A stretch of 64,000 nucleotides of DNA, taken from the NCBI RefSeq assembly GCF_044704955.1, contig NC_091984.1:148800001-148864000 (forward strand). Reading direction: 5' to 3'. How positions within the stretch are numbered: position 1 is the stretch's first letter; the number at the start of each line of letters is the position of its first letter. Below the pieces are notes generated by a model. The model was not told the origin of the DNA. It was given only the letters and a program-made list of their open reading frames with translations, and ran no database searches. Origin of the DNA: Pristiophorus japonicus. Lineage: Eukaryota. Both the position numbers and the translations under genes were made by a program. This document shows positions 11,701 to 64,000 of this stretch, piece after piece.

Positions 11701-12660
11701 TGTAATATGGCCCTTTTTGTTTTTTGCCTTGGGATTCCCTGCCCTCCACTTTTACTATTCTCCTTTCTATCTTTTGCCTCTGTCTCCTTTTTATTTCCCT
11801 CTGCCTCCCTGCATAGGTTCCCATCCCCCTACCATATTAGTTTAACTCCTCCCCAACAGCACTAGCAAACACTCCCCCTCAGACATTGGTTCTGGTCCTG
11901 CCCAGGTGCAGACCGTCCGATTTGTACTGATCCCACCTCCCCTAGAACCGGTTCTAATGCCCCAGGAATTTGAATCCCTCCCTTCTGCACCACTCCTCAA
12001 GTCACGTATTCATCTGAACTATCCTGTGATTCCTATTCTGACTAGCACGTGGCACTGGTAGCAATCCTGAGATTATTACTTTTGAGGTCCTACTTTTTAA
12101 TTTAGCTCCAACCTCCCTAAATTCGTCTCATAGGATCTCATCCCGTTTTTTACCTATATCGTTGGTATCTATGTGCACCATGACAACTGGCTGTTCACCC
12201 TCCCTTTTCAGAATGTCCTGCACCCGCTCTGAGACATCCTTGACCCTTGCACCAGGGAGGCAACATACCATCCTGGAGTCTCGGTTGCGGCCGCAGAAAC
12301 GTTTATCTATTCCCCTTGTAATTGAATCCCCTATCACAATCGCTCTCCCATTCTTTTTCCTGCCCTCCTGTGCAGCAGAGCCACACACGATGCCATGAAC
12401 TTGGCTGCTGCTGCCCTCCTCTGACGATTCATCCCCCCCAACAGTACCCAAAGCGGTGGATCTGTTTTGCAGGGGGATGACCGCAGGGGAGTCCTGCACT
12501 AGCTTCCTTGCACTACTCTTCCTGTTGGTCACCCATTTACGATCTGGCTGTTTACACTTTACCTGCAGTGAGACCAACTCGCTAAACATGCTATTCACGT
12601 CATTCTCCGCATCGTGCATGCTCCAGAGTGAATCCACCCGCAGCTCCAGTGCCGCCATGC
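8779..12660 (-). mobile_element. Near full-length CR1 LINE (ORF1 SGNH esterase-like C-part, ORF2 APE-RT), mildly degenerate
   Basis: ORF1 AIVIGDSITRG..VCCLPGARVKDV..VHIDTND; ORF2 IMGDFN, SDHNMV, KSPGPD, YLDFQKAFDKVPH, SGVPQGSVLGP, YADE; 3' tail CTAT(G)TTTC repeats. Confidence 0.95.
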
Positions 12661-14358
12661 GTGAGGCATGAGTCCGGGGAGCATCTGAGGCCCATAAAGG
12701 CCACAAGAGGCAGTGGGAGTTTGTGGTCACTGAGGCGTGAGTCCGGGGAGCGTCCGAGGCCTATAAAGGCCACGAGAGGCAGCAGGAGTGCGCGGTTGCT
12801 GAGGCGTGAGTCCGGGGAGCATCCGACGCCTATAAAGGCCGTGAGAGGCAGCGGGAATTCGTGGTCACTGAGGCGTGAGTCCGGGGAGAGTCCGAGGCCT
12901 ATAAAGGCCACGAGAGGCAGCGGGAGCTCGTGGTCGCTGAGGCGAGAGTCTGGGGAGCGTCCGAGGCCCATAAAGGCCGCGAGAGGCAGCGGGAGTTCGT
13001 AGTCGTTGAGGCGCGAGGCCAGGGAGCGTCCGAGGCTTATAAAGGCTGCGAGAGGCAGCGGGAGTTCGTGGTCGCTGAGGCATGAGGAAGGGGAGCGTTC
13101 GAGGCCTATAAAGGTCGCGAGAGGCAGCGGGAGTTCGTGGTAGCTGAGGCGTGAGTCCGGGGAGCGTCCGAGGACTATAAAGGCAGCGAGAGGCTGCGGG
13201 AGTTCGTGGTAGCTGAGGTGTGAGTCCGGGGAGTGTCCGAGGACTATAAAGGCCGCGAGAGGCAGCGGGAGTTCGTGGTAGCTGAGGCGTGAGTCTGGGG
13301 AGCGTCCGAGGTCCATAAAGGCCGCGAGAGGCAGCGGGAGTTCATGGTCGCTGAGGCGTGAGTCCGGGGAGCGTCCGAGGACTATAAAGGCCGCGAGAGG
13401 CAGCGGGAGTTCATGGTCGTTGAAGCATGAGGCCGGGGAGCATCCGAGGCTTATAAAGGCTGTGAGAGGCAGCGGGAGTTCGTGGTCGCTGAGGCGTGAG
13501 TCCGGGGAGCATCCGAGGCTTATAAAGGCTGTGAGAGGCAGTGGGAGTTCGTGGTCGCTGAGGCGTGAGTCCGGGGAGCGTCTGAGGCCTATAAAGGCTG
13601 CGAGAGGCAACGGGATTTCGTGGTCGCTGAGGCGTGAGTCTGGGGATCGTCCGAAGCCCATAAAGGCCGCGAGAGGCAGCGGGAGTTCATGGTCACTGAG
13701 GCGTGAGTCCGGGGAGCATCCGAGGCTTATAAAGGCTGTGAGAGGCAGCGGGAGTTCATGGTCGTTGAGGCGTGAGGCCGGGGAGCGTTCAAGGCCTATA
13801 AAGGCCGCAAGGGGCAGCGGGAGTTCGTGGTAGTTGAGGCGTGAGGCCGAGGTGCGTTCGAGGCCTATAATGGCCGCGAGAGACAGCGGGAGTTCGTGGT
13901 CGCTGAGGCGTGAGGCCAGGGAGCGTTCGAGGCCTATAAAGGCCGCGAGAGGCAGCGGGAGTTCGTGGTCACTGAGGCGTGAGGCCTGGGAGCGTTCGAG
14001 GCTTATAAAGGCTGCGAGAGGCAGCGGGAGTTCGTGGTCGCTGAGGCGTGAGGCCTGGGAGCGTTCGAGGCCTATAAAGGCCGCGAGAGGCAGCGGGAGT
14101 TCGTGGTCGCTGAGGCGTGAGCCCTGGGAGCGTTCGAGGCCTATAAAGGCCGCGAGAGGCAGCGGGAGTTCGTGGTCGCTGAGGCGTGAGGCCTGGGAGC
14201 GTTCGAGGCCTATAAAGGCCGCGAGAGGCAGCGGGAGTTCGTGGTCGCTGAGGCGTGAGGCCTGGGAGCGTTCGAGGCCTATAAAGGCCGCGAGAGGCAG
14301 CGGGAGTTCGTGGTCACTGAGGCGTGAGGCCTAGGAGCGTTCGAGGCCTATAAAGGCC
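12661..14358 (+). repeat. 69-bp tandem array (~24-25 units), each with a CCTATAAAGG-type TATA-like box; CR1 5' UTR monomers
   Basis: 23-aa periodicity in ORF track; runs directly into a CR1 5' UTR and ORF1 start. Confidence 0.9.
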
Positions 14359-14660
14359 AGCCGGTGCAGCTGCAGGGAGAGAAGGCAAAAAAGAAGTAGA
14401 AAGAAAACGAAAGGTGACATCACAGCCAAGGGGTAAGTGATTGGCTGGTGATTGGTAAGTAGTTTTTCATTCTCTTTTCTTTATCAGTACGTAACATTTA
14501 GCATTGTTGTTGCCAAATTAAGTTTATCTAAGGATTAAGTCATGGCAGGAGAGCTCGGACACGTGTTATGCTCCACCTCTACGATGTGGGAACTCGGGGG
14601 TGCTTCCAGTGTCCCTGACGACTACGTGTGCGGGAAATGTATCTGCCTGCAGATCTTGAC
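14359..14660 (+). mobile_element. CR1 5' UTR and ORF1 N-terminus (inverted 5' part of the 8779-12660 element)
   Basis: ATG 14542 MAGELGHVLCSTSTMWE..DDYVCGKCICLQILT (Zn-finger-like start), breaks at 14660; continuation RMAALELRVDSL begins at ~12661 on minus. Confidence 0.85.
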
Positions 14661-44385: not shown

Positions 44386-45682
44386 TTTCTTTCCAATTCA
44401 GCTCGACATCTTTGAAACCCAAACCCGCGGACAGTGACGGACAGGTAAAGACCCTGTGGTCCATCCAACCCGTCCCACACAATTGCAATACCTTGTGTAT
44501 CACAGTATAGACTCTCCACCCCACCCAAAACTACCTGATCTCCTGGGAGAGGTGAAAAACCAGGTAAAAAACCCATTGGGGGAAATAAATCTGGGAAACT
44601 CCTCTCCGACCCCCCCCCCCCCCCGCCCCCGCTCCCCAGGCGATGGAAACTAGTCCAGGAGGTCACTGTGGCCCTGAATTCCCTGCAGTAACTACCTTCT
44701 GTAAGTGGTGATCTCCGCATCGGCCACAAACAGGTCCTGCTCTCGCTTATGTACAGCTCATGAATTTAAAATTACAAACTTTCCCCACAGTGTCAAGTGC
44801 TGCAAATACTGTGTTACATTATCAGGGTTATATTCTCACTGTCTGTCATTGTCACAACACTCGCAATATAAATGCAAGTTGTTGTTGTGTTCAGGGGCCG
44901 CTGTATCTGGCTCAGGCTTCTTATCCATCCCCCCCTTCCCTTCCCCCTCCATTGAGGGCCATGCCTTCAGCTGCCTGGGGCCTAACTCCCTGCTCCCTAA
45001 ACCTCTCTGCCACTCCATCCCTCTTCTCTTTTAAGACCTCCCTTCAAACCCAATCTGTGACTGAGAGTTTTGATCACCCACCCAGCTCCTCCCCCTTTGG
45101 CTCAGCACCACTTGGACCAGATTACACCTCTGTCAGCTGCCTCGGGATGTTGTTCTAATGTTCCAGTTGCTATAGTGTCGAGGAAATATTTAGCTTAAAT
45201 TAACTCAGGCGGAGACTTTCAGAAGTGCACTTCGAGAGAATTTATTTTAAAAAGCGAGATATATCTCGGAGAGCCTGCTTGGACCGTACCAAGGCAAAAA
45301 CTCTGCCGTACAGGCAAATTGTCCCCATCTTTATACAGAAATTAAATACAGAAATATAAAAGGAATCTTATTCATTTGTCCCGCGAGTACAAAGGTCGTC
45401 TCAGGAGGTACACACTCTATCTATCCTTGCATAGTTTCTCTCTGTTCACAGTCTGATAAGTAGAATAAAAGGAGACTCCCTTTTAATACCAGATGGTCAT
45501 TTAATTGCATCTCTAAGTTTCAAGGCTAAAAAAGCATGGCTATGTTTCTAGTCCTATTATTTCTTTAAGCATAGCAAAAACAGAATTTAACCCTTTCCTT
45601 TTCCATAAGCCATAGATTCATAGATCCTTTCTTCCACAATTCCCTCCTTGTTGATCTTTTTATTTTTTAGATCAACACAATT

Positions 45683-47493
45683 TCAATATTCTCTTCTTGA
45701 GCAAAAGGGGTTTATTACTTGACTAATTACATTTTTTAATTTTATCCACATTCCGCAAAGGATTATTAATAATACAAGCATAACCACACCTACGATTACT
45801 ATGGGGTGTATAGCAAGCTTCAGTACTGCTGTAGCTTTTAGGGACCATCCGGTAAACACATCCCACCAGTGGTGTACTGTCAAAGAGGTGACTTCGTCTG
45901 CAATTCTCACTAGTTGCCCCTTCTTGTAACTCATTTCGACTCTAAATTGGTGGATGTCTCTGCCTTGCTTTGACAGAGCTTCCTCAATTTTCTTGTCATT
46001 CCGTATCAAATTGTGCAGTCTGGTCAGATTAATTACAGGGGGTAAGGGTTCAATCTTGTGCATAGACAGATACTTTTCTACATTTTGCCATTGCCCAAAG
46101 GTATAAGTTTTTTTTAACTTCAGGGTCATACAGGGTGTAGACTCTTCTCACGCATTTATTAATGGGGGGTTTATACAAAATTCCATCCAGATAGACAGGT
46201 TTATTTCCTGTCACACAGACCTCATTCTGTCCTATTTCCGTTATATCAGTGTCATTTGTTGGCTTTAATTCCCATTTACATACTCCAATGGCATGCTGCA
46301 GTGAGCATGGTTCGTATATGGCGGTCTGATAGGGACATACCATTCCGAATGGCCACCTAGCACATCCCCTCTGGTGATGTGTCATATTCTTCTCATCGAC
46401 CCAATCTCCTTTAAATTCTGGGTACCAGAAGTTCTGTCCAAACAGTTGGGGCATTACTTGGAACTGACACCAAATTTCTTTTCGTGTCATTCTTACTATT
46501 TCTCCAGTAACGTTACATCCTTTTGAATTACAACTGGTATATCTTTTTTGAGGGCTAATGGTTAAATTAAGAAGCTTATCTCTTTTGTTAATTTCCAGCA
46601 ACCTTTCCCATGTGTTAGCATGGAAGGATAATATTTTCCTTTCTAACTCGGCTCTTAATAGCTGTCTGATCATTTCTTTAAACAGGCAATGGGTGTACTT
46701 GTTACTCCCTGTTGTTCCTTTATTAGGTTCTCTATTTCCTTCTCTACCCTTTCATTCTGTTCCCAGGTCATTTCGTTTATGACGTAACCTGATATTTGTA
46801 ATTGCTGTAATCCTTCATCCCAGGCATTTCTGATTTTTATATCTTCCCCTACCAGTCCTCCGACGGCCTGGATTTTATTTTGTAGGGTCTCGATATCCAT
46901 GGAGTTCAATGCTCCTATTCCTGCTCCCACTCCACCTAACACAGTCTCTAATACATCCCGTTTCTTTCTTTGGGGTCTTTCTTTTTCAAAAGATACTTTA
47001 ACACTGGTTGTGTGGCAACCATCTTCTTTCTTTGGGGGATATTCACCGGGGTGTTATTCATGCACAACATCCGCTGCCCTTCTACCATACTTGTAAATGA
47101 ATAATGGAGGAAGTCTTTTCTCTCGTCCGGCCCTCCTATGTACCCCCATCTCTTGTTTTTCCCTGTGCTCCCGGTACACTTCATCCACACATCGGCCTGG
47201 TATTCTATGAACAACTGATACCCTTTCCCCAATATAAATTGGAACTCCCCTCTTTCTTCCTTCATTCCACATGCCTCACATCGTGCCGTAAAATTCCCTA
47301 CCTTACAACTTTGGCCTACTGGGCATATAAAATTGCCTTGCTGCCTCATACTATTACTTCTTTCCCATACCATATTTCCCTTCCATACTCTTCCTTCTTT
47401 TAGGACTTCTTCCTCCTGCCGGGAGTTCCCTGTCGCTAAAATGATCAGTATACCTAATGTCCATTTATAATTTTTCCAAGAGTCCCTTCCCAT
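45683..47493 (-). pseudogene. env: ERV env, frameshifted; short SU, RKKR furin site (46958-46969), long TM subunit
   Basis: Signal peptide WTLGILIILATG; RKKR|DVLETVLGGVGAGIGALNSMDIETL; Cys-rich ectodomain; HHWWDVFTGWS..HPIVIVGVVMLVLLIILCG anchor. Confidence 0.9.
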
Positions 47494-47620
47494 CTTCCCT
47501 TTCTTGTTTGTTTCTATACCACTCTTGAATTAAGTCGTTACAATAACAACACGTCCACACGATAGTAACAGTGGCCCAAATAATAAAGGCCCAAACTGGC
47601 ACACAAATGAGCTCTGACAT
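47465..47620 (-). CDS. Small single-pass membrane ORF (51 aa) between pol and env, overlapping env start
   Basis: MSELICVPVWAFIIWATVTIVWTCCYCNDLIQEWYRNKQEREDGKGLLEKL; ATG start, intact. Confidence 0.5.
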   Translation of the reverse strand: MSELICVPVWAFIIWATVTIVWTCCYCNDLIQEWYRNKQEREDGKGLLEKL

Positions 47621-50600
47621 CTGTCCGTGAATTTTGGGCAATATTTTCAAGTCCAAATATTTAATACAAGAGCAGGTACAGTTCTTTCAGCGAGAAGATG
47701 GCTGTTTTCTTAGTCGGGCGACCGTAGTATGTCCTGGTTCAATACCTTTTTCTTCGGCTGTAATTCGTCGGGGAAATGATATTTACAGCGGATTGCATGC
47801 ACCCAGTTCGGGTGCTTTTCCAACTTCAAAGCGGATCGTGTTGTGACAATTATCTGATACGGTCCTTTCCACCAAGGAGAAAAGGATTCTTTATTTAATG
47901 TTTTTACTAACACTTGATCTCCAGGTCTGAAAGGGTGCATATTTCCTTCCAAAGGGGCACCTGTGTCTGCTTTATTTGTTCATGCAGACTTCTTGTTATT
48001 TCACACATGGCCTGAGCATACTTTAGTGATTTTTCATCATTCCAACTTAATGCTATTTTTTCATCTGCCAGTGGTGATTTTACGCCAGTAGGCATTGGTC
48101 TTCCCAATAAGGCTTCATGTGGTGTCAAACCAGTGTTTCGGTTTTTCTGGTTTCTCATTGTATACAATACTAATGGTAAGGCTTCTGGCCACTTCAGTCC
48201 AGTCTCCTGACATACCTTGGTAAGGGTAGATTTTATTATCCCATTTACTCTTTCTACCATTCCCGAGGACTGTGGCTGATATGGTATATGTAACTTCCAC
48301 AGGAAACCTAACGCTTCTGCAAGGTTTTGCACTATTTTTCCGGTGAAGTGGGTTCCCCTGTCACTGTTGATTCCCATAGGTATCCCATATCTTGGTACTG
48401 TTTCTTTAAATAGAATTTTTACTACTGTTCGGGCATCGTCTTTCCTAGTGGCTTGCGCTTCTACTCACCTTGTGAACATGTCTATTATGACTAATAGGTA
48501 CTTAAGACCTGATACTGGAGGCATGTTGACAAAGTCAATTTGCAAATTTTCAAAGGGCATACTTGGCTGGGGTAGATGATCATATCCAGCAGGTGTTTTA
48601 CTTCTGTTATTTTGTTGACAAATTTGGCATGTTCTAGCAACTTTCTCAATTACTACTGTTATTCCTGGTGCATACCACTGTGCATTAATAGCATGTATCA
48701 TCCCTCCTTTGCCCATGTGAGCCTGACCGTGTGCTAGGCGAGACAGGGGCAAAAATAGAGATCTAGGGCAAACAGTTCGCCCATCAGGGTGATACCAAAT
48801 GTCGTTTTTTAGAAAACAACCCTGGTTTTCCCAAGTTCTTCCTTCCTGCATGGTAACTTGTTGTTGGGCTGTTTTAAGTTGTTGGATGTCAAGTACCTGT
48901 GGAGGGGAGACTGAGACTGCTTGAAGGCAGTCTGCCTGTGCCGAAGCGGCCTGTTTGGCTGCCTCGTCAACCCTCCTATTTCCTACTGATACTTCATCCT
49001 CACCAGTTGTGTGAGCTGCACATTTGATGAAGGCTACCTTACTTGGCAACTGAATGGCATCTAATAGATTAAGCACCAGTTGAGAGTGCTTAATATGCTT
49101 TCCACCAGAGGTGATAAAGCCTCTGTTTTTCCACAGTTGTCCAAAATCATGGACCACACCGAATGCATATCTAGAATCAGTATAGATATTAGCAGTTTGA
49201 TCTTTAGCTATTATACAAGCTCTAGTGAGGGCAAACAATTCAGCAGCCTGAGCCGAGGTTCCGGGAGGCAGGGCGAATGCTTCAACAGTTTCGTGGGGAT
49301 TTACAATAGCATAGCCTGCCAACAGCAAGTCATCCGATGGCCTGTACGATGATCCATCCGTATAGAGAATAAGATCTGGATTGTCCATGGGCTCTGTGAG
49401 CAAATCTGGTCTTGGTAAGGTGGCTATTTCGACCGTTAACAGACAATCATGCTGGTCTGGATCCTCTATTCTTTAGTAGGAAGAAAGGTGGCTGGGTTCA
49501 CTACCGGTGCGCGTCGAAAGGTATAGTTAGGGTGTGACAGCAGTAATACTTCATAACCTGTTCTTCTAGACGCTGTAAAGTGTTGTGTGGCAGCTGAATT
49601 CAAAAGTAATAACACAGCATGGGCGGTAATGACAGCACATAGATAATCCAAAACAATAGGTGCCGACTTCTCCACCATGACTGCAGTAGCAGCTACAGCA
49701 CGTAGACATGCTGGCATTCCCCTTACTACTGGAGGCAGCAAAACCGAATAATAAGCAACTGGTCTATTTCCCCCACCATGTTCGTGGGTTAGTACTGCTG
49801 TTGCAAATCCTTCTTTCTCATTCACATACATCTGAAAAGGTTTACCATAATTCGGAAGTCCCAACGCCAGAGCATTAGTAATGGCTTTCTTTAACTGTTT
49901 AAATGCCTCCTCTTTCTCTGGGGTCCACTCCACCTTGGGTGGGGCATCATTTAGGGCAGCTGATCTTAGGACCGCATCCCATTCTCGATTCTTTCTGGTC
50001 CTAGCTGCCTCTGCCCTTGAGATATGTGAAAACCCAGGTACTGGACTTGAGTCTGACAAAATTGTAACTTTTGTAACGACACTCGGTGCCCTCTTTCACA
50101 TAGGTGCTGTAGCAGTTTCAGGGAATCTTGCATGCACCTATATCCGTGGCTAGAAGCCACAAGCAAATCCTTGGGGCAACCTGGTCCATGTGTACTGCTG
50201 CTTCTTGTGGGTGAAAGCAAACAGATACTGACTTTCTTGATTTAACGGAATAGAGAAAAAAGCTGAACACAGGTCTATTACAGTAAAGACAGTTGCTGTT
50301 GGTGGTATAGCAGATAGTATAATGTTGGTGTCCGGTACCACAGGGGTGATAGGGACTACTATCTTATTAATAGCTCTCAGATCTTGCACAAATCTCCATT
50401 CCTACAATCATCGGACCCATATCTTTAGGTTTCGCTGGCGGTTTTACAGCCAATGTCAGATGGGGTGTCGAGTTCGCTTCTCTAAACCGCTGCTGCTGTA
50501 AGGGTGTCAAATCGATGGCTACCCCCAATCCTTCTGGTCCAAAATAAATGCGGGGCGTAGCTTCTACTATTTCTTCTCTATTTAAAAAGGATTGTACCAG

Positions 50601-50983
50601 ACACTGGTAAGTTTCAGCTTTTTGTCGAGTGTACCAGGCTGTACAGTGAAGCTGAACTGCCTCAAAGCTTGTCAAAATTATATACATCAATTCTTCAGTA
50701 TTAGAGTCAAATTTAGCTTTTAAGTTTTGTATAACTTCATGTATCAAGGGGGAATAGAAGTTGCCATTCAATTGCCAACAATAGAGGGCAGCCTTTTCTT
50801 TGTTATCCTCCCTTTTCTCTTCTTTAATCCCATTAAAAAACTGATGGATTTTATTTGGAGGGAGCTCCATGAACATTCCTTCCTTTGTGCAATAAATTGT
50901 GGCTCCTAGTTTGCACAAAGTCTGTCTTCCCAATAAAGGGAGAGGTGTTGTTTTAGAGACTATCAAAGTCTCATCATTAACTG

Positions 50984-53900
50984 TGTTGTAGGAGGTAGGC
51001 ACCTTTAGAATATACCAGAATACTAGGCATTAGGCACCTGCTAGATATATCTAAACGCATATAAGTTTAAAGTGGCCACACATAAAATGGCTGCCCAGGC
51101 ATGATGGGAAATCAGGTAGTCAAGCTGTGAACTGTTGAATGTTCAATGACCGAGCAATAACCCTGTGAGGCCCACTATAGGAATGCCTTGGATGCAGGAT
51201 AAGAATAATGAGGAGAGAACCCATCTCCCATATTCAAGGCCATAAACCAATTAATTCCCCAGGAAGAAAGAGATAAGAGAACCCATCTCCTGTAAACAAG
51301 GTTAGAAACCAATTATTTCTCCAAGAAGAAAGAACTAGTGAGAGAACCTATATCAATCAGCCCAAGCTGACAAAAGACGAACACATGGTTCCTGAGACAT
51401 AAGGGGAATTCTATTGGGTTAAAATAACCTATATGTAATCTATAATCATTGTGATTGGCTTGTGTCCAGCCGTGATGGGCTGTGTAGCTGTAGTAAACTG
51501 TTTTGTAACTGTTGTGAAACATATAAAGGTGCATGTAATCCTTTGTTCTGTGAAGAGAAACCTGGATACGGTCCTGAGTTTTTCCTTCCCGCTGAGCGTA
51601 ATAAAAGCTGCTTCAGCATTGGAGCCGACCCTGAGTGTTGAGTGATTCTTCTAAGAAAACACTAACGCTAACAATGGCGTAGTCGACGGGATTTCCCGGA
51701 GTCGCTGGACGCCCTTGGAAAAAACCCGGGTGAGTATAAAAAACAATTTTTAAGTATAAAGGGTGCGGAAGGTGGAAGCTGGTTGATCGACATGAGGAGA
51801 CGGTCTAATATCTCAAACGCCTAGCCTGAGCCTGAATTAAGAGGACTTTTGTCCCACGTGACGGCCAGGAACCAAGTAGGCGTAGGGAACACACTTAGAC
51901 CGTGGGATCGTGATACCGAGAGACATCTTCCGGACCCAGTAGTGTAATTTGAAATACCCCGGGATAGAACCAAGCGGTGTACAGCGGCTAACGGAATCCA
52001 AACCTGTGAACAGGGTCGGACCAACAGGCTGAGCGGTGGTAGGTAGTCGTTAAGGATACGTAGAGCACTGCGGGAATTGCTTAAACGCGTTTTTAAGAAT
52101 TGTATAAGTTTGTGCAACAGCAGAACTTGTGACCTGACAGTAGCCAAGAGACAGTTTACTACAAGTCGCGCTAGAAAGAAAGCGGACCTCTGAGAGTAGA
52201 TTCCTAACGGTAGTAGTCCTACCCAGGAATGGCCATGAAAACAAGTAAACTCGAGTGGGGACCAGAAGGGTCGCTTACCCGCCACCTGGCGGAAAAACAA
52301 AAGAAGCTAATTGAAAAAAATGATTAAAGCAGGGTGGAATCCTCAGGAATTAGTTATGTGAGGAATTATTTAAATAAAACTACGAATTCCCTGAAAGGTC
52401 ATGGATCCAAAAATAGAGCCGGCCAAAACAAGAAGAGAGACTGTTGTAAATGTCTGATCGTTGAGTGAGAAGTGTCTGTGTGATTTTTGACTGCAGAATG
52501 AATTTTTTTATGTTTTCATGTTCCGAAAGTCTGGTTGGAAGAGGAATGCAAGTGTCTGTTTATTTTAGAAACAGAGTGAAAGTCTTTTTTTAAACCCTTT
52601 GTAATGTTGTCCTGTATGTGGGAAGTTTTAAGACATTTAAGTTAGAAACGCAGGTGTGGATTTATTCGGATGATAAGTTACGGAGCTAGGAAAATAAACA
52701 AATAAAGAATAGGTTTGTTGAGCAAAATATTTATTTGACATGCTCACTTACTTGCCGAAAGAAAACATGCAATGATTGATTGGGCTGAAAGACATAAATT
52801 TAGTCTCGGAGTGAGATAAAGAATGCTTTAAAAAAAAAGAGCTTCTAAAAAAAAAAGTTTTAAATAAAGATTGAAATTACAAAGTTTGAATTGGGATTTT
52901 GAGATATTCAGAGAAGGCACAGGAAATACTGAGGTGGATTTAAAAAAAAAGAAAAAGATTAAATTAAATCTGATCAGGTCAAACTCCTGGGCAAGTGGCG
53001 AGCTATCTGCGAAGGTGTAAAAGGAACTTTTGGAAAATGTTAAAAAAAAAAACAGCAAGCTTTAGTAACGACTTTGAAACTGGAGCATTTTGAGATAACG
53101 AAAAAGCACTCAAACTCTCAAAGATGGACTTCATTCCAGTTATGGAGAAAAAGAAAAAGATAAAGACGCCACTTTGAAAGTAAACAAATGATTTTAAATT
53201 AACAACTTTATGGAGTTACGAACCCTCCGTGTAAAATACAAAACCTAATTTGAAGAAAGGAAAAAAAGATGTAACGGACTAAATGGAAAAAGACATAACT
53301 TACTAAATACTAGTTGATGTTTGCTGTGAAAAAGATATTGGTTTAATTAGAAGAGGAAAAAAAAAATTGGAATAAGTAAAAAACACTCTACATGGATTCG
53401 AATTTTCAATTATGAAAAAGTTTCAATGCAGTTTGAAAAGATTTCCAAAATGGACAGTGTTTATCAAAAATGTCCCGAACAGTCTAAACAAGCAGGAGGG
53501 TTTTGAAGATAACGAGGAGAAAGAGAGAAATAAAAAAAAACAGAATTGAATTTCAGTAAACAAAATTGCTATTGTATGTGTGGTCTTGTTTTAAAACAAT
53601 TTAAAAAAAAAATTCTTTGGCAAGTACTTGAATTAGAAGTTAAGAAAACATTGGAGTTTACTCTAATGATTTATGCTGTTTTTAACGGATTCCTAATTTC
53701 GAAGCCAGTTTTGAAGGCACAAAGACTTTTTTTCAGATGATTACGTGAAATCACGTAATGACATCAGGTCTTCTTACAAACCTGTAAAGGAGTTAACCCT
53801 TTCCATTGACAGCCGTGTTATACTGAACATTATTAATTTGGATTTCTTAATAGGAAAAAAAAAGACTCACCTAACAGAGGAAACAAAAAATAAAAACAGA

Positions 53901-56900
53901 ACTAGCTTATGTAATAATGCTTGCCTGATACAATAAAGAAATAGATATTCAATAAAACAAATTGAAGAGTTAAAAGCTAAGATAAACAGGCTGGAAGAGA
54001 TAACAGGACTAGACGGATAGTGCAGTGCGCAGCCATAGCACCATCACCTCTGGCAATAGAGCCAATGTACCCCACGGTGGGTAGGTGTAGTCCACAAACC
54101 CAACCTAACGGTAAAGCAGACAGCGATGTTTGGAGGAATAGCTTTGGCCTTGGTCATATGAGTTTGGGTAATATTTAAGTGGGTAAAGACACGGGCGCAC
54201 GCCCTACAGATTCAGCTCGAAATGGTTCGATTATAACCTTGTGCTTCTGATTTTGCAGGGTGACAGGGACACTCGTAGAGCAAAAAACTTAACCCCTGGT
54301 GACGACCAGGCCGTCTGTTTAAAATTACAGATAATACTTACCGGAATGGGAATACGAACGGCGCTACTCGTAATATGGATAGCCCTGTGACATACACGAA
54401 CCCTGGGCAACACCGACGGACAGCAGAGCACGCTGGAAATAAACAATTACATGAACTATGGAGTGTTGTTCAATTTGACGGACGGAATATGTGTTCCAGC
54501 GACTAAGGATTGGAGCAAGGACAGAACTTATTTTAATGCATGGTTACAAGTGAATCCTAATAAGGACCGGGTATGTGTACAGTGCTCCACGGGTATAAGG
54601 AGCAGCTGCATTAAACGGAGGGATGTCAAAGGGCCCGATGAATGTACTTTCGGCATAATTTGTGCGCCTCCGGGACAATCCCAGCAATCAGTCATCCGCA
54701 AGAAGGGAATGGGGCTGTGTGGGTATTACGAGGAGGCGGGAGTGGCTGCAATATCATTGTATGTATGTTTCTCACCCCCTCCAACACCGCGCCCCATAAG
54801 AATCACTACATTGCCCGAGGAACTGCCTTGCCCCATAACTACGAAGGGACCAGAGAATGGGATTGTAATGTACAGCGAGGGGGAACTGTTGTATGATAAT
54901 GTTAGACATGAAATTGTGCCTGTTCTGATCAATATTTCAGGCATCCAGATGCTGGAATACTGTACAGAACAGTCAAGGAAGATGTACAATGTATTAAGTA
55001 AAGTTGTCATGCAGCAGGCTGCCGATGCAATGTGTGCCAGTAGGTTCCGGGGACAGGGGTTAGCCCCAGGATGAAGAGGGAAGTAGTTAATGATGTTGCT
55101 ACCGTTTTCAATACAGAGACCTCCGTAGTGAACTCGATAGACATACAAGGATTAAATGAGAGGGTGGAGCAAAACCAGGAAGACCAGGCCAACCTAGGAA
55201 AGGAGGGTGCCAAAATCCAGTTGGATGGCATCTCAGTCCTGGAAGCTCACGCTAAAACCATCAATCACCTCATTGATAGAGAACAATAAAGCAAAGACAG
55301 GGGCAACTCTGTCATGCTTATGGTCTGTGGATGGTGGGACAGATCCGCCACAACCTCGACCAGATCCAACGCGGGGAAGTACCCGATTGGATAGACAGTT
55401 CACATTTAGCTCAGTTGGCGAACCAAAGGGGGACACTGGATAATTGTACTCTGAAGGGACTGACCCGAGTATACCCCGCAATTCCAGATTGCCAGATGGG
55501 TAGGACTACCGGGATAGGGATAGTCCTGTTGATCCCTATAGCAACGCCGGACTCAGGGCCGTTCCCCTTATACCAACTAGAGAATATCGGAGTAATACGG
55601 GAAAATGTCTCCATACGCTACTACCTGACCACCACCTCTGCCGTTCGTCGAAACAACATACTTACTGGGATTTCCCTAGCAGATTGCAAGCAAAGGGGGG
55701 GAAATCACAGTATGCCCTCACCCGATGGGCCGAGGTGAACTAGACGAGTGCGGGTTTAACCGAACCAACGGGTGTGTACTAGAAATAGTGCCCGCACACA
55801 TGCACTTCGCGAGGGCAGGCTACGGAGGGAGGGGAAGATACTGCGTCTCTACCACAGAGCGTTCATACCAGTATAATGACCTGCAGTGCCCTATACCGCA
55901 GCCAAACTTTTGCTTTACACCACGACGACCTGTCGCGATCGGGCAAGCGCATATCACACAAGTTAGGCGCCGGAAGTCCGAAGTTATTGAAGTAACTGAT
56001 CAGCTCCATGATCATTTGCAGGATTATGACGAGCCAGAGCAGGTCCCTATCCCACATCTCACGGAGGTATTACGGGAGTTAAGGCTCAGAGTGGGGCAAT
56101 CCGTAAAACTCTATCACCAGCTACAAACTAAAATCAAAGAACTGGAAGAAGATACCGAGGTAGACTTACAAAGTCAGAGTTGGTGGAGAAAGGTCTGGGA
56201 CTGGGGAATAAATGTGAACATCCACCCATGGATCCGAATTATTTCACACACACTGGTCGGTATACAATTGATCTTAGCAATAACATGGGGCGTAATGGCC
56301 TGCCAGGCATGCAGACACCACGCACAACGAAGACGGACAAATCACCGTTCCCTGGATACTAAACAAGCCTGTTTTATAAGGGGGCAGGAGGATTTGGCCT
56401 TTGTCAATTCGATTTAAGCAACCGGGACTCCTGAAACTGCGTGACTGGCCAGCACGTTGAGGCAGGGAGTACCGGGCCGTGCACAAAATCTAATAAAGGT
56501 CGAATGATCGGTTAAAAGGGGACTAGGACTAGTCCCTTTACCGAAAGGGGGAGTTGTTGTAGGAGGTAGGCACCTTTAGAATATACCAGAATACTAGGCA
56601 TTAGGCACCTGCTAGATATATCTAAACGCATATAAGTTTAAAGTGGCCACACATAAAATGGCTGCCCAGGCATGATGGGAAATCAGGTAGTCAAGCTGTG
56701 AACTGTTGAATGTTCAATGACCGAGCAATAACCCTGTGAGGCCCACTATAGGAATGCCTTGGATGCAGGATAAGAATAATGAGGAGAGAACCCATCTCCC
56801 ATATTCAAGGCCATAAACCAATTAATTCCCCAGGAAGAAAGAGATAAGAGAACCCATCTCCTGTAAACAAGGTTAGAAACCAATTATTTCTCCAAGAAGA

Positions 56901-57244
56901 AAGAACTAGTGAGAGAACCTATATCAATCAGCCCAAGCTGACAAAAGACGAACACATGGTTCCTGAGACATAAGGGGAATTCTATTGGGTTAAAATAACC
57001 TATATGTAATCTATAATCATTGTGATTGGCTTGTGTCCAGCCGTGATGGGCTGTGTAGCTGTAGTAAACTGTTTTGTAACTGTTGTGAAACATATAAAGG
57101 TGCATGTAATCCTTTGTTCTGTGAAGAGAAACCTGGATACGGTCCTGAGTTTTTCCTTCCCGCTGAGCGTAATAAAAGCTGCTTCAGCATTGGAGCCGAC
57201 CCTGAGTGTTGAGTGATTCTTCTAAGAAAACACTAACGCTAACA
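50984..57244 (+). mobile_element. Nested pol-less LTR element carrying a degenerate F-like env
   Basis: 690-bp LTRs 50984-51673 and 56555-57244 (identical by eye), TSD ACTG, PBS TGGCGTAGTCGACGGGAT at 51675, PPT GAAAGGGGGAG ~56543-56553. Confidence 0.95.
54346..56417 (+). pseudogene. env: env-like class I fusion glycoprotein gene, disrupted
   Basis: Signal MGIRTALLVIWIAL (TGA at 54388), RMKR cleavage ~55068-55079, NSIDIQGL heptads, Cys spacing like paramyxo F1, coiled coil, WW..HP, TM helix; at least 4 lesions. Confidence 0.8.
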
Positions 57245-57504
57245 ACTGGTTGTCCTTCAATTATCAATTTGGTAGGTTCAGATAAAAATTCTTTCATGGG
57301 AATACCGGCCACACCCATACTTAAGACGGTGGTGTTGCTTACAGGTAATCCCACAGAGGATGGTACAGAAGACATAGTAGCACCAGTATCCACCAGGAAT
57401 TTCACATAAGTGTCTCCTACTTTTACTACTGCCAGAGGGTTTTCTTCTATGGCTGCTGATAAGTGGAGGGCTGCCGCCTGTACCACTAAGCCTCCGGGGC
57501 ATCC

Positions 57505-60434
57505 CTATGCTGATTATTCTGTGCCTGTCCTTTTTTTTACTTTGAAGGTATGAGGCGTGAATTCGCTAGGATAGATTGGCGAATGATACTTAAGGGGTTG
57601 ACTGTGGATGGGCAATGGCAGACATTTAGAGACCGCATGGATGAACTACAACAATTGTACATCCCTGTCTGGTGCAAAAATAAAAAAGGGAAGGTGGCTC
57701 AACCGTGGCTATCAAGCGAAATCAGAGATAGTATTAAAGCCAAGGAAGTGGCATACAAATTGCCAGAAATAGCAGTGAACCCGGAGAATGGGAGAAATTT
57801 AGAACTCAGCAGAGGAGGACAAAGGGTTTGATTAGGGCAGGCAAAATAGAACACGAGAGGAAGCTTGCAGGGAACATTAAGATGGACTGCAAAAGTTTCT
57901 ATAGGCATGTAAAGAGAAAAAGGTTAGTAAAGACAAACGTAGGTCCCCTGCAGTCAGAATCAGGGGAAGTCATAATGGGGAACAAAGAAATGGCAGACCA
58001 ATTGAACAAGTACTTTGGTTCGGTATTCACTAAGGAGGACACAAACAACCTTCCGGATATAAAAGGGGTCAGAGTGTCTAGTAAGAAGGAGGAACTGAGG
58101 GAAATCCTTATTAGTCAGGAAATTGTGTTAGGGAAATTAATGGGATCGTAGGCCGATAAATCCCCAGGGCCTGATGGACTGCATCCCAGAGTACTTAAGG
58201 AGGTAGCCTTGGAAATAGCGGATGCATTGACAGTCATTTTCCAACATTCCATAGACTCTGGATCAGTTCCTATGGAGTGGTGGGTAGCCAATGTAACCCC
58301 ATTTTTAAAAAAAGGAGGGAGAGAGAAAACATCGGTAGTGGGGAAAATGATGGAATCAATTATTAAGGATGTCATAGCAGCGCATTTGGAAAGAGGTGAC
58401 ATGATAGGTCCAAGTCAGCATGGATTTGTGAAAGGGAAATCATGCTTGACAAATCTTCTGGAATTTTTTGAGGATGTTTCCAGTAGAGTGGACAAGGGAG
58501 AACCAGTTGATGTGGTGTATTTGGACTTTCAGAAGTCTTTCGACAAGGTCCTACACAAGAGATTAATGTGCAAAGTTAAAGCACATAGGATTGGGGGTAG
58601 TGTGCTGACGTGAATTGAGAACTGGTTGGCAGACAGGAAGCAAAGAGTAGGAGTAAATGGGTACTTTTCAGAATGGCAGGCAGTGACTAGTGGGGTACCG
58701 CAAGGTTCTGTGCTGAAGCCCCAGCTGTTTACATTGTACATTAATGATTTAGATGAGGGGATTAAATGTAGTATCTCCAAATTTGCGGATGATACTAAGT
58801 TGGGTGGCAGTGTGAGCTGCGAGAAGGATGCTATGAGGCTGCAGAGTGACTTGGATAGATTAGGTGAGGGGGCAAATGCACGGCAGATGAAGTATAATGT
58901 GGATAAATGTGAGGTTATCCACTTTGGTGGTAAAAACAGAGAGACAGACTATTATCTGAATGGTGACAGATTAGGAAAAGGGGAGGTGCAACGAGACCTG
59001 GGTGTCATGGTACATCAGTCATTGAAGGTTGGCATACAGGTACAGCAGGCGGTTAAGAAAGCAAATGGCATGTTGGCCTTCATAGCGAGGGGATTTGAGT
59101 ACAGGGGCAGGGAGGTGTTGCTACAATTGTACAGGGCCTTGGTGAGGCCACACCTGGAGTATTGTGTACAGTTTTGGTCTCCTAACTTGAGGAAGGACAT
59201 TCTTGCTATTGAGGGAATGCAGCGAAGGTTCGCCAGACTGATTCCCGGGATGGCGGGACTGACATATCAAGAAAGATTGGATCAATTGGGCTTGTCTTCA
59301 CTGGAGTTCAGAAGAATGAGAGGGGATCTCATAGAAACGTTTAAGATTCTGATGGGTTTAGACAGATTAGATGCAGGAAGAATGTTCCCAATGTTGGGGA
59401 AGTCCAGAACCAGTGGTCACAGTCTAAGGTTAAGGGGCAAGCCATTTAGGACTGATATGAGGAGAATCTTCTTCACCCAGAGACTGGTGAACCTGTGGAA
59501 TTCTCTACCACAGAAAGTTGTTGAGGCCAATTCACTAAATATATTCAAAAAGGAGTTAGATGTAGTCCTTACTACTAGGGGGATCAAGGGGTATGGCGAG
59601 AAAGCAGGAATGGGGTACTGAAGTTGCATGTTCAGCCATGAACTCATTGAATGGCGGTGCAGGCTCGAAGGGCTGAATGGCCTACTCCTGCACCTATTTT
59701 CTATGTTTCTATGTTTTGCTGATAGTACTTACCTGCTGTTTTAGCCTTATTTTCCTTATAGGTAAATAGTCCCTCTCTATCCATGTTAGCCAGTACTGTA
59801 ACTGTCTCTTTCCAACTTTTTCCTTGCCAGTCAAAAACCTTTATTTTGTATGTTCTTGCGTGTTGTGGCAACATACAATTTAACAAGGTTTGCACTGCCA
59901 AAGGTTCATCTTTTACCCCTTGCCAAGAGGACCCATATGCTGCCTGCAGTAATAATTTCACATCTCCGGGGAGGGGGTTATAAATGGTACAGGTTTGCTC
60001 AAGCCAGTTGTGAAAGGCTACTGGCTTCTTAACAGGATTAGGGGCGGCTGATATTGTTTTTTAAAACAATTCTCCATATAATCTTTATCCCAAGTGGGGA
60101 CCCCTGTCCCATTTTTGGTGGTCTGTCTCCATTCCTCAATTAAGGACAATTTAAAACTTCCTCCATATGGCCAATCCCCATCAGACCAACCGTACAAATC
60201 TCTACTAAATGTTACCGCGTATCTGTCGTCTCCTGTTTCTTTAATTACAGTGTCCGCCGGCGAGCTGGGCAGCACAATGGGATCTCCTACGTTCTCTTGT
60301 TGCTTTACTACCTTACTGATTTTTTTCTCAGTCTTAGGATGTACTTTCATTCTTTCAGTTGAGAGGTCGTCCTTCTTTCCTTTTCTAGGAGCTGGGTGCG
60401 AGCGCCCTGCTCGACTAGAGCCGTTTCCCATTCT
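57505..60434 (-). pseudogene. gag: ERV gag remnant (interrupted by CR1), amber junction with pro
   Basis: MGNGSS myristoylation-type start, WPYGGSF matrix motif; TAG GGA at 57507-57502 in frame with protease. Confidence 0.7.
57538..59714 (+). mobile_element. 5'-truncated CR1 inserted in ERV gag; same subfamily as 8779-12660
   Basis: MRREFARIDWRMILKG.. through RT to CTATGTTTCTATGTTT tail; peptides near-identical to 9521-10921 ORF. Confidence 0.95.
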
Positions 60435-60746
60435 TCCGGGTGCAACGTCTCGCGATCTTTTCTGAAATGAGAGTTGGGACAATCCTACAAAATATACAAT
60501 AATTTACAAAGCGCTCACCGGTGTTCTCTTTTCTGCTCAGCTCGGGGTCTCCTTTTGCCTTTTTGTTATTTTAGCTTCTTTGCCGTAGCTATCTTATGCC
60601 TCACCCCCTAGGGGATCTCGGCGGCCCGTCCCCCTTTCAGCTAGGACGGCCTAGGCACCTTCCTTCTTTTAGCTAGGAAGGTCCTTAAAATTCCTCTTTT
60701 CTCTTTAAAAGTTAAATTTAGTTCTTTTGGATCTCGTTTTTTAGAG

Positions 60747-60765
60747 ATCCTGCCGGACTACGCCA
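60747..60765 (-). promoter_or_regulatory. Primer binding site, tRNA-Ser
   Basis: TGGCGTAGTCCGGCAGGAT vs tRNA-Ser complement TGGCGTAGTCGGCAGGAT. Confidence 0.85.
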
Positions 60766-62239
60766 GAATCTGTCGAGGAAATATTTAGCTTAAATTAACT
60801 CAGGCGGAGACTTTCAGAAGTGCACTTCGAGAGAATTTATTTTAAAAAGCGAGATATATCTCGGAGAGCCTGCTTGGACCGTACCAAGGCAAAAACTCTG
60901 CCGTACAGGCAAATTGTCCCCATCTTTATACAGAAATTGAATACAGAAATATAAAAGGAATCTTATTCATTAGTCCCGCGAGTATAAAGGTCGTCTCGGG
61001 AGGTGCACACTCTATCTATCCTTGCATAGTTTCTCTCTGTTCACAGTCTGATAAGCAGAATAAAAGGAGACTCCCTTTTAATACCAGATGGTCATTTAAT
61101 TTCATCTCTAAGTTTCAAGGCTAAAAAAGCGTGGCTATTTTTCTAGTCCTATTATTTCTTTAAGCATAGCAAAAACAGAATTTAACCCTTCCCTTTTCCA
61201 TAAGCCATAGATTCATAGATTCTTTCTTTCACATATAGCAATGCAGGTTGTTGCTGCTGTACCTGGAGGCTGGGCGTCACTGTGTGGATATACCCCGTGC
61301 ACCGAGTTCCGCAGTGAGGCCTCCCACAGTGGAATGGCCTGCCGATGCTCACTGCAGTGCGGAGTGGCTGCTGATCCGCCAATCGGTCTGAGACACCGCC
61401 TCACGAGCGGACAAGGAGATACACGCTGAGATCCACCATCAAATGGCACGTGGGGAACTGGAAATGATTCTGCAAATCTGACTGGAGGTTTGGTACAAAC
61501 GGCTTTTACAAACCAATCAATTGATTGACAAAGAAATTGTCTTTGTGAAACTTTGAAAATTGCAGCTCAATCAAATTGTGAGGGAAACTGGCAGTGATGT
61601 CTTCATACCAAAAGGGGGCGATGTTGGTTGCGAAAAGACCAAACTTAATGAACAAATCCCAGAAGCTGGGCAGAAGGGATTGGCTCCCGGTTAAGCAACG
61701 CCTCCGCTTCAAAATTTTCATCCTTGTTTTCAAATCCCTCCATGGACTCGCCCCTCCCTATCTCTGTTAGCTCCTCTAGTCCTAAAGCCCTCCGCCCCCC
61801 CGATACCTCGATGCTTTCCAATTCTGGCCTTTTGTAGATTGACGATTATAACCATTGGTGGCCGTGCCTTCAGCTGCCGAGGCCCTATAGTCTGGAATTC
61901 TCCCCCTAAATCTTTCCGCCACTCTAGCTTTCACTGCTTCTTCAGCACACTCCTTCAAACTCATCCCTTTGATCAAGCTTTCGCTCATCTATCCAAAAGT
62001 CTCCTGACATGGCTCGCTGTCAATCTTTGTTGTATAACGTTCCTGTGAAGCGCTCGGGGAGTTTTACTGTGTTAAAGGTGCTGTATAAAAGTTGCTGTTG
62101 TTGTTTGTTCTGAGTTAGCTGATCCAACTGAGGTCGGGATATGACTCACAGCTCAGACTGTGCGGCATCCAGTGATGCAATGTTGTATCGTGGGTTCAAG
62201 CCCCACTCCAGGGACCTGAGTGTAAAATAAAGGCATACA

Positions 62240-64000
62240 CTACTGTGCAGTCCTGAGGGAGTGCTGCCCTGTCAGAGGGGCAGTACTGAGGGAGTGCCAC
62301 ACTGTCAGAGGAGCAGTACTGAGGGAGTGCCGCACTGTCAGAGGGGCAGAACTGAGAGAGTGCTGCACTGTCAAAGGGGCAGTACTGAGGGAGTGCTGCA
62401 CAGTCGGAGGGGTAGTACTGACGGAGGGCTGCACTGTCAGAGGGGCTGTGCTGAGGGTGTGCTGTACTGTCAGAGCAGCATTACTGTGGGAGTGTTGCAC
62501 TGTCGGAGGGGCAGTACTGAGGGAACACTGCACAGTCGGAGGGTCAATACTGAGGCAGTGCTGCACATTCGAAGGGGAGGTACTGAGGGAGTGCTGCAAT
62601 GTCGGAGGGGCAGCACTGAGGTAGTGCTGCACTGTCGGAGGGGCAGTACTGAGGGAGCGCTGCACTGTGGGAGGGGTAGTCCTGAGGGAGTGCTGCACCG
62701 TCGGAGGGGTTGTACTGAGGGCTTGCCGCACTGTCGGAGGGGCAGTACTGAGTGAGTACTGCACTGTCAGAATGACAGTACTGAGGGAGCGCCGCACTTT
62801 CAGATGGGCAGTACTGAGGGAGTGCTGCACTGTCAGAGGAGTAGTACTGAGGGAGTGCTGCACTGTCAGAGGGGCAGTACTGAGTGAGCACTGCAGTGTC
62901 GGAGGGGCAGTACTGAGGGAGTGCTGTACTGTCGGAGGGGCAATGCTGAGGGAGTGCTGTACTGTCAGAGGGGCATTACTGAGGGAGTGCCGCAATATTA
63001 GAGAGACAGTACTATGGAGCAACGCACTGTCGGAGGGGCTGTACTGAGGGAGTGCTGCACTGTCGGAGGGCAGTACTGAGGGAGTGCCGCAATGTCAGAG
63101 CGGCAGTACTGAGGGAGTGCTGCACTGTCGGACCGGCAAACAGAGCGAGTGTGGCACTGTCAGAAGGGCAGTACTGAGGGAGTGCCACACTGTCGGAATG
63201 ACAGTACTGAGGGAGAGCTGCACTGTCGGAGGGCAGTACTGAGGGAGTGCCACACTGACGGAGGGGCAGTACTGAAGAATTGCTGCACTGTCGGAGGGGC
63301 AGTAATGAGGGAGTGCCGCACTGTCAGAGAGGCAGTACTGAGGGAGTGCCGCACTGTCGGAGGGTAGCAGTACTGAGGGAGTGCTGCACTGTCAGAGGGG
63401 CAGTACTGAGGGAGTGCCGCACTGTCGGAGGGGTAGTTCTGAGGGTGCACTGCACTGTCGGAGGGGCAGTACTGAGGTTGTGCTGCTCTGTTGGAGGGGC
63501 AGTACTCTTGGAGCGCTGTACTGTCGAAGGGGCAGTACTGAGGGAGTGCAGCCATGTTGGAGGGGCAGTGCTGAGAGAGTGCTGCCCTCTCGGAGGGGCA
63601 GTAGTGAGGGAGTGCCGCACTGTCAGAGGGGCAAATCTGAGGTCGTGACGCTCTGTCAGAGGGGCAGCACTGAGAGAGTGCAGCACTGTCGGAGGGGCAG
63701 TACTGAGTGAGTGCTGCACTGTCGGAGCGGCATTACTGAGGGAGTGCCGCACTGTCGGTAGGGAAGTACTAAGGGAGTGCCGCACTGTCGGAGGGGTTGT
63801 ACTGAGGGAGTGCCGTACTGTCGGAGGGGTAGTACTAAGGGTGTACTGCACAGTCAGAGGAGCAGTGCTGAGGGAGTGCTGCACTGTCAGAGAGGAAGGA
63901 CTGAGGGAGTGCTGCACTGTCAGAGGGGCAGTACTGAGGGAGTGCTGCACTGTCAGAGGGGTAGTACTGAGGGAGCGCTGCACAGTCAGAGGAGCAGTGC
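62240..64000 (+). repeat. 33-bp SINE-derived minisatellite (long, copy B; runs off window)
   Basis: 11-aa periodicity (TVQHSLSTAPL) in ORF track; >50 units. Confidence 0.95.

Follow-up and report, generated by a model that had tools for sequence, protein, structure and literature searches.

The window, by which we mean the whole stretch of 64,000 nucleotides of the Pristiophorus japonicus genome that was analysed, contains a broken retroviral env gene, carried by a short LTR element that is itself nested in an older endogenous retrovirus (ERV). The element is one of about a thousand copies of a retrovirus that were inserted recently and lack a polymerase. The explanation that we consider very likely, taken as a whole, is that it is the broken env of a young element without gag and pol that probably spreads with the aid of a 9.4-kb form of its family, the latter having a predicted F-type Env and a reverse transcriptase (RT) that is not lokiretroviral. 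The features are collected in Table 1.

Table 1. Positions, in the window, of the inner element, its parts and the surrounding ERV.
Feature	Position	Strand	Remarks
Outer (host) ERV	45,176-61,233	-	463-bp LTRs, target-site duplication (TSD) TATAG
Outer env, four frame pieces	45,686-47,529	-	remote homologue of inner Env
Inner LTR element	50,984-57,244	+	6,261 bp (~6.26 kb), nested in the pol of the older ERV
TSD ACTG	50,980-50,983; second copy 57,245-57,248		4 bp
5' LTR	50,984-51,673	+	690 bp, TG...CA, same sequence as 3' LTR
Primer-binding site (PBS)	51,675-51,692	+	3' of the 5' LTR
gag start, ~40 codons	52,229-52,352	+	86-91% identity to long form
AT-rich filler (33% GC), 1.77 kb	52,353-54,125	+	replaces gag-pol; common to 10/10 short copies
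3' remnant of 66-aa single-TM ORF	54,126-54,236	+	internal stop; from comparison with long copies
env, broken	54,346-56,417	+	one stop and three frameshifts
Polypurine tract (PPT)	56,543-56,553	+	
3' LTR	56,555-57,244	+	

The inner element is oriented opposite to the outer ERV and is inserted between the protease motif (57,370) and the RT (50,398) of the latter. Since it is nested there, it was inserted after the outer ERV; the LTR pairs show 0/690 differences for the inner element and 12/463 for the outer one. This order of insertion is all that the nesting shows, and the co-circulation of two F-type retroviral envs in the shark lineage, as proposed in the initial annotation, does not follow from it. 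The PBS is one that we take to be tRNA-Ser-like, and that of the outer ERV presumably is as well. Apart from the start of gag, neither gag nor any pol remains in the inner element.

The possibility that the AT-rich filler is a decayed or A/G-edited gag-pol was considered and rejected: no match was obtained when it was compared with 253 proteins and with 59 other loci, and the score of an A/G-tolerant alignment, 66.5, lies inside the shuffle range of 47-74.5. The coiled-coil word that had been read as a remnant preceding env (~53950) is real (53,952-53,999), but it sits in this filler, which is confined to short copies, and the upstream Met is absent in 10/10 of them. A remnant of the lokiretroviral smc gene can be ruled out for this word, given its confinement to the filler. 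The small broken TM ORF noted just before env (~54127-54234) is likewise real, and corresponds to the 3' end of a single-TM ORF of 66 aa, which all long copies checked (7/7) have between pol and env. This ORF is conserved, its product has a single hydrophobic segment followed by a basic tail, and it could encode an accessory protein.

The env gene is read from an ATG at 54,346 to a TAA stop at 56,415-56,417, with an in-frame stop at codon 15 and frameshifts near 55,060, 55,285 and 55,700. Every motif named in the initial annotation was recovered at its place: GIVMYSEGELLY (54,859), IVPVLINI (54,913), RMKR (55,068), NSIDIQGL (55,131), GIVLLIPI (55,517), LYQLENIGV (55,568) and GISLADC (55,667), as well as WW (56,181) and HP (56,223), both ahead of the membrane anchor. 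The motifs are distributed over three reading frames, and the C-x8-C pattern crosses the last frameshift. The equivalents in the outer env are present too, on the minus strand (NSMDIETL at 46,883-46,906, WW..HP at 45,868-45,791). From its start, the inner Env consists of a signal peptide, an N-terminal beta-rich region and a predicted F-type core with the RMKR furin site, fusion peptide, heptad repeats, Cys-rich strands and TM anchor. Compared to the open Env that longer copies in this genome have, the pieces in the window show 77-95% identity. Among 922 candidates there were only two hits, both to annotated but uncharacterised proteins of Mustelus asterias, with which the last open piece shares 65-68% identity; because of these identities the motifs cannot be ascribed to chance. 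CX6CC, the hallmark of gamma-type Env, is absent from this Env, and Pfam gives no TLV_coat hit.

We now turn to the family in the genome. A search of the genome gave 15,907 first-look candidates, and all 150 that were scored (150/150) have 98-100% identity. Twenty copies were fetched (L011-L030), about half of them picked for long env frames, which makes the openness of the long copies a biased sample. Ten of the 20 are ~9.4 kb long and have gag, pol and env, at 7 distinct insertion sites (four share flanks), while the other ten are ~6.2 kb, without pol and with the filler in common. A single TGA separates gag from pol, without a change of frame, in the long copy that was examined, and the long-form Pol comprises protease, RT, tether, RNase H and integrase. 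The LTR-pair identity is at least 99% in 18 of the 20 copies; one has 95.8% and one is without a proper pair.

The numbers of the two forms were estimated with exact 20-mers, which have 1,132 matches in the genome for env, 1,136 for the filler, 112 for integrase and 2,939 for the LTR, and 0 for reversed controls. These were chosen as present in all relevant fetched copies, and as single exact words their counts are lower bounds that include segmental duplications. They suggest some ten short copies for each copy that bears pol. Many filler matches have no env 20-mer match next to them, so further short variants may exist. A 9.4-kb spacing of hits on contig C31 had the appearance of the long form and was ruled out as such, being a tandem array that holds a short copy.

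A few further observations were made on the fetched copies. L011 and L012, on contig C31, were amplified with their flanks as a ~9.4-kb tandem array, and L018, L019, L021 and L022 are one long insertion seen four times, also amplified with flanks. Two PBS variants segregate in both the long and the short form; of 19 PBSs found, 7 have one variant and 12 the other, with an additional change in one of these 12, and the two variants possibly represent two tRNA-Ser types. The TSD length is apparently 4 or 5 bp within the family, according to a reading by eye of the L011-L030 flanks. A short copy directly 3' of the pol of another ERV (L029:2-1793) is likely a second nested insertion.

That the Env is F-like, as had been claimed from its motifs, was examined at the level of sequence profiles and of structure. 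The Pfam profiles Fusion_gly and Baculo_F, proposed earlier as a check, give no hit on the inner or the outer Env and are thus undecisive; in the window pieces and their open relatives the only fusion-protein hit is Baculo_F, with an E-value of 0.001, on one remote member. The structure search, on the other hand, favours an F protein. One of the Mustelus proteins (P0002) has 58 hits among 1.84 billion representatives, and 9 of the 10 that were looked up are named, coming from sharks, a skate and frogs. The Env family alignment comprises 50 sequences, and P0002 was folded as stand-in for the long-form Env, with which it shares 57% identity. Its model has a mean pLDDT of 68 and a pTM of 0.46, with a good core and poor first 150 residues, and displays a beta-rich core from both subunits around the furin site together with a long HR1 helix, as in class Ib (F-type) proteins.

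When this model was searched against the PDB with Foldseek, RSV F came first (E 1.6e-10), followed by hPIV3 F (E 3.2e-10). VIA-align superposes it on post-fusion Nipah F with Z 11.3 and an rmsd of 5.0 over 279 residues. In a search of 48,161 chains made without Foldseek, the three best-scoring chains are F proteins (Z 10.5, 8.5 and 8.4); foamy Env reaches 7.8, and the highest value for a short helical bundle is 8.2. The fifth and sixth ranks in a comparison with predicted viral structures are taken by Envs of walleye epsilonretrovirus, and the family profile searched against PDB sequences gives foamy Env first, weakly (E 0.002). That the inner Env is an F-type (class Ib) fusogen, with a fold like that of the measles and RSV fusion proteins, is thus well supported as a prediction. 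With the class Ib fusogens (paramyxovirus and pneumovirus F, foamy Env; Fernandez et al. 2024, PMC11468914, as far as its available text goes) the predicted core is shared over model residues ~174-570. The shark Env differs in being only 8-14% identical to them and in belonging to a partner without foamy-type RT, and its fusion activity is a prediction.

The inner Env had also been described as homologous to the outer one, which holds for remote homologues: profile to profile, hhalign gives 96.8%, and the match is strongest at the furin site, the fusion peptide and HR1. Against the full profile the values are 98.2% for loki Env (371 columns), 97.1% for the outer Env and 94.7% for the Env of snakehead retrovirus (SnRV; 274 columns), so that a detectable relation to the lokiretroviral Env can be affirmed as well. 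As a check on circularity, loki Env was found to be absent among the 58 Env hits, the best identity being 25%. The comparisons were repeated with narrower profiles and reversed controls, and their scores are not a phylogeny, the Envs being 17-20% identical. The Env of L049 is the best of 10 references in all three profiles, while loki Env takes second place in two of them and is not matched by the narrowest one; the control, an Env of gamma type, stays at background score.

Lokiretroviruses are defined by the position of their RT (Wang and Han 2021, PMC7947760, in the portion available), and the accessible supplement of that paper gives the RT motif as PFG in lokiretroviruses and LPQG in SnRV. 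The RT of the 9.4-kb partner has LPQG, like SnRV, and not PFG. Our SnRV reference is IMG/VR contig L035, which is identical in 4/4 RT motifs to the SnRV row of this supplement, and the loki references (L050, L051, L053) are metagenome contigs assigned by motif match to the same partly available source, tree position and Env Fusion_gly, not by database name. All three have PFG, and the two with env hit Fusion_gly. No walleye or other epsilon references were obtained from IMG/VR.

Two trees were calculated with LG+G4. The RT tree has 48 rows, a subset of 118 usable protein hits with selected loci added, and the RT+tether tree has 30 rows and one outgroup, with an unreliable root (L077, labelled Gypsy, groups with retroviruses). 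The RT tree sets lokiretroviruses apart, as sister group, from the remaining retroviruses, which include the partner (98/97); there it falls into a shark clade (100/97) inside a weakly supported fish group. Its group with L049 has 82/61, and its relation to SnRV and class III ERVs, with which the pol of clade Huo groups, takes the form of a polytomy. In the RT+tether tree the partner is again apart from lokiretroviruses, its clade adjoining class I-side lineages (89/96) with SnRV next (80/84). Foamy rows form a clade of their own (100/100) without the partner in both trees. The initial annotation had left open a plain Gypsy element as partner. The Pol domains including tether and RNase H, the bit scores (MLV 187, foamy 182, Ty3 119) and the RT tree all establish a true retrovirus instead. 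The partner appears to belong to a basal fish-retrovirus grade, somewhere near SnRV.

The lokiretroviral identity suggested in the initial annotation has consequently to be abandoned. An inner element that is a lokiretrovirus, which would be the first in cartilaginous fish, could account for an F-type Env with RxKR site, fusion peptide, coiled coil and TM segment as in lokiretroviruses (PMC7947760, available part), for the hhalign match to their Env and for the dual RNase H (tether and RNase H), the latter being undiagnostic since it is found in all retroviruses. It is, however, extremely unlikely. Besides the RT motif and the two trees, an AU test with the partner and its three closest kin joined to lokiretroviruses rejects that arrangement (p=0.000235), which largely refutes it given three loki references and kin picked after seeing the tree. 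The partner RT is 37% identical to lokiretroviruses and 44% to SnRV, and among 148 scored RTs of the same genome none is loki-like, the best having 42% identity to loki RT. The available text of PMC7947760 describes loki integrase as closest to CGIN1 and a smc-like gene in some members. The long copies have no extra ORF of at least 200 aa ahead of gag on the sense strand, and their integrase tail hits MLVIN_C weakly (E 0.003), while a loki reference hits Integrase_p58_C/SH3_Tf2-1. It is important to point out that an F-type Env is not diagnostic for lokiretroviruses, because the Envs of SnRV, foamy viruses and walleye epsilonretrovirus match too.

A related possibility is that only the env was taken from a lokiretrovirus by a virus with another polymerase. 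The loki Env does score 69 with the core and 119 with the full profile, compared to 47-55 and 72-88 for the SnRV, outer and foamy Envs, and env exchange occurs in the RT clade of the partner: in L047:4089-5825 and L048, both metagenome contigs, an RT from the sister clade of the shark family is combined with an Env of gamma type (TLV_coat E 1e-20), which suggests that env was exchanged inside this clade. This sister lineage agrees with the env/pol incongruence that the accessible part of bioRxiv 2021.11.23.469661 describes for anamniote ERVs. Yet the low identity between the Envs speaks against such a recombinant, as does the fact that L049, whose RT is non-loki and lies in the wider group of the partner, outscores loki in all three profiles; when the profile is restricted to the 14 closest members, the probability falls to 2% for loki and stays at 96% for L049. 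Moreover, relatives of this Env were met with in several sharks, a skate and frogs, and the shark Env has an extra N-terminal region of ~150 residues. We therefore regard this origin as decidedly unlikely; most simply, the F-type Env of the shark family would have been inherited from an early retrovirus and not taken from a lokiretrovirus.

How the short form has spread can be approached from the state of its env. Frameshifts, 1-5 each, are found in 11/11 short copies examined (the 10 fetched and the window), including copies with identical LTRs, and the same 245-codon last env frame recurs in 69 of the best 150 hits by hand count. Copies must accordingly have multiplied after env broke. The env pN/pS is 0.20-0.22 in short and 0.13-0.15 in long copies, and short copies differ from one another by 1.1-1.2% in filler and leader and by 2.0-3.3% in env. 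Quick trees of the two env halves conflict, with three short copies nearer to long ones in the 3' half. The short copies thus show signs, in their sequences, of recombination, which is the simplest reading of why their env differences are mostly synonymous.

One could also imagine the two forms as a split system in which the short one is kept for supplying Env and has begun to decay only recently. Its env was indeed retained whole while gag-pol was lost, and its pN/pS could reflect selection that acted on env within the short lineage. But recombination explains the low pN/pS as well, the long copies have an env of their own, and a system of this kind fits poorly with frameshifts in every short copy examined, even those with identical LTRs, and with the amplification of shared env breaks. 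We find it unlikely. Spread of the short copies by means of helper proteins is, on the other hand, likely. The long form would make Gag, and Gag-Pol by read-through of its single TGA, and its Env, once cut at RxKR, would refold to a six-helix bundle in the manner of paramyxovirus F. With its LTRs, PBS, leader and PPT preserved, the short RNA is probably packaged together with helper RNA, with which it may exchange env and 3' segments via template switching; this would bring in env variation shaped by selection in the helpers, with the env in the short form likely a passenger.

The outer ERV has a class I RT that falls outside the gamma clade in both the RT and the RT+tether trees, and is for this reason called epsilon-like. 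An F-type fold is only suggested for its Env by modelling: the model is poor (pLDDT 40), its best Foldseek E-value is 0.03 with F proteins as the top rows, and in the ESM Atlas the Fusion_gly/Baculo_F clusters come first (0.95), with low recognition. Another, older env family is present in the genome (L071-L076), about 45-50% identical to the outer Env. The gag region of the outer ERV is interrupted by a repeat at 57,539-59,711, which we take to be a LINE fragment and which has an 84% identical inverted copy at 8,779-10,965. GC-rich minisatellites at 4,600-8,300 (23/33/34-bp units), 12,500-14,500 (69-bp) and 62,100-63,900 (33-bp) make long spurious ORFs.

As to known systems, the named comparison group for the family is SnRV and the SnRV-like ERVs of clade Huo, including CmiERV lineage I of the elephant shark (PMC4422223 and PMC6001957, both as partly available). 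SnRV is the closest named virus by RT, shares LPQG/YVDD and gag and pol in frame across one stop, and has a homologous Env. It differs in forming no supported clade with the shark partner RT and in having an Env frame of 1,134 codons, compared to about 710 aa for the shark Env, and the 66-aa TM ORF before env is a feature of the shark family. The PBS types presumably differ also, being Ser-type in the shark family and Arg-type in SnRV. With lokiretroviruses (PMC7947760, in its available portion) the family has in common the compact F-related Env with RxKR site and GP..GIV motif, the dual RNase H and the order LTR-gag-pol-env-LTR. In contrast, its partner RT lies outside the group, it has no smc, and its Env has no Pfam Fusion_gly hit. 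Like non-autonomous ERVs complemented in trans (PMC8922424, available part), the short form has kept cis signals, has lost or broken coding genes and outnumbers its helper. It is distinguished from them by keeping the env region and dropping gag-pol. The env-less ERV 'superspreaders' show the reverse of this pattern.

Several of these elements have precedents in the literature, here cited from the parts of the sources that were available. SnRV-like and epsilon-like ERVs were already known side by side in cartilaginous fish (PMC4422223), young ERVs are described in 13 cartilaginous fishes (PMC10435555), and lokiretroviruses were found in 0/3 chondrichthyan genomes (PMC7947760). F-like Envs are known in lokiretroviruses (PMC7947760), foamy viruses (PMC11468914) and errantiviruses (PMC13524379), and Viro3D expects more RSV-F-like proteins in Retroviridae (PMC12583693). 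A review calls the walleye Env distinct and recent, and the epsilonretrovirus Env a recent innovation (PMC9967133). Our literature search met with no statement of an F fold for the Env of SnRV-grade or epsilon-like ERVs, a point that Calcraft et al. 2024 (Cell) may cover.

A predicted F-type Env that is combined, in the full-length form, with a polymerase from outside the lokiretroviruses suggests that this type of Env is old and widespread among retroviruses. The window holds two unrelated retroviruses, neither loki nor foamy, whose Envs are related to each other, the inner one being predicted F-type, and F-likeness can thus not be used for calling a lokiretrovirus. F-related Envs were mapped here in lokiretroviruses, foamy viruses, SnRV, the shark family, its relatives and one epsilon-like ERV. 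We can put forward, as a tentative proposal that we stop somewhat short of endorsing, that the F-type Env is the ancestral envelope of all retroviruses and the gamma-type a later replacement. If this is true, it contradicts the view of the epsilonretrovirus Env as a recent innovation in the available part of PMC9967133, and the shark family would be a still-young witness, with a compact loki-like Env on a near-orthoretroviral polymerase. The question of the envelope of the first retroviruses would become testable with many young, little-decayed sequences, left by a recent burst in a shark-type germline in which a probably helper-dependent form, having kept env and dropped gag-pol, outnumbers the pol-bearing one by about ten to one.
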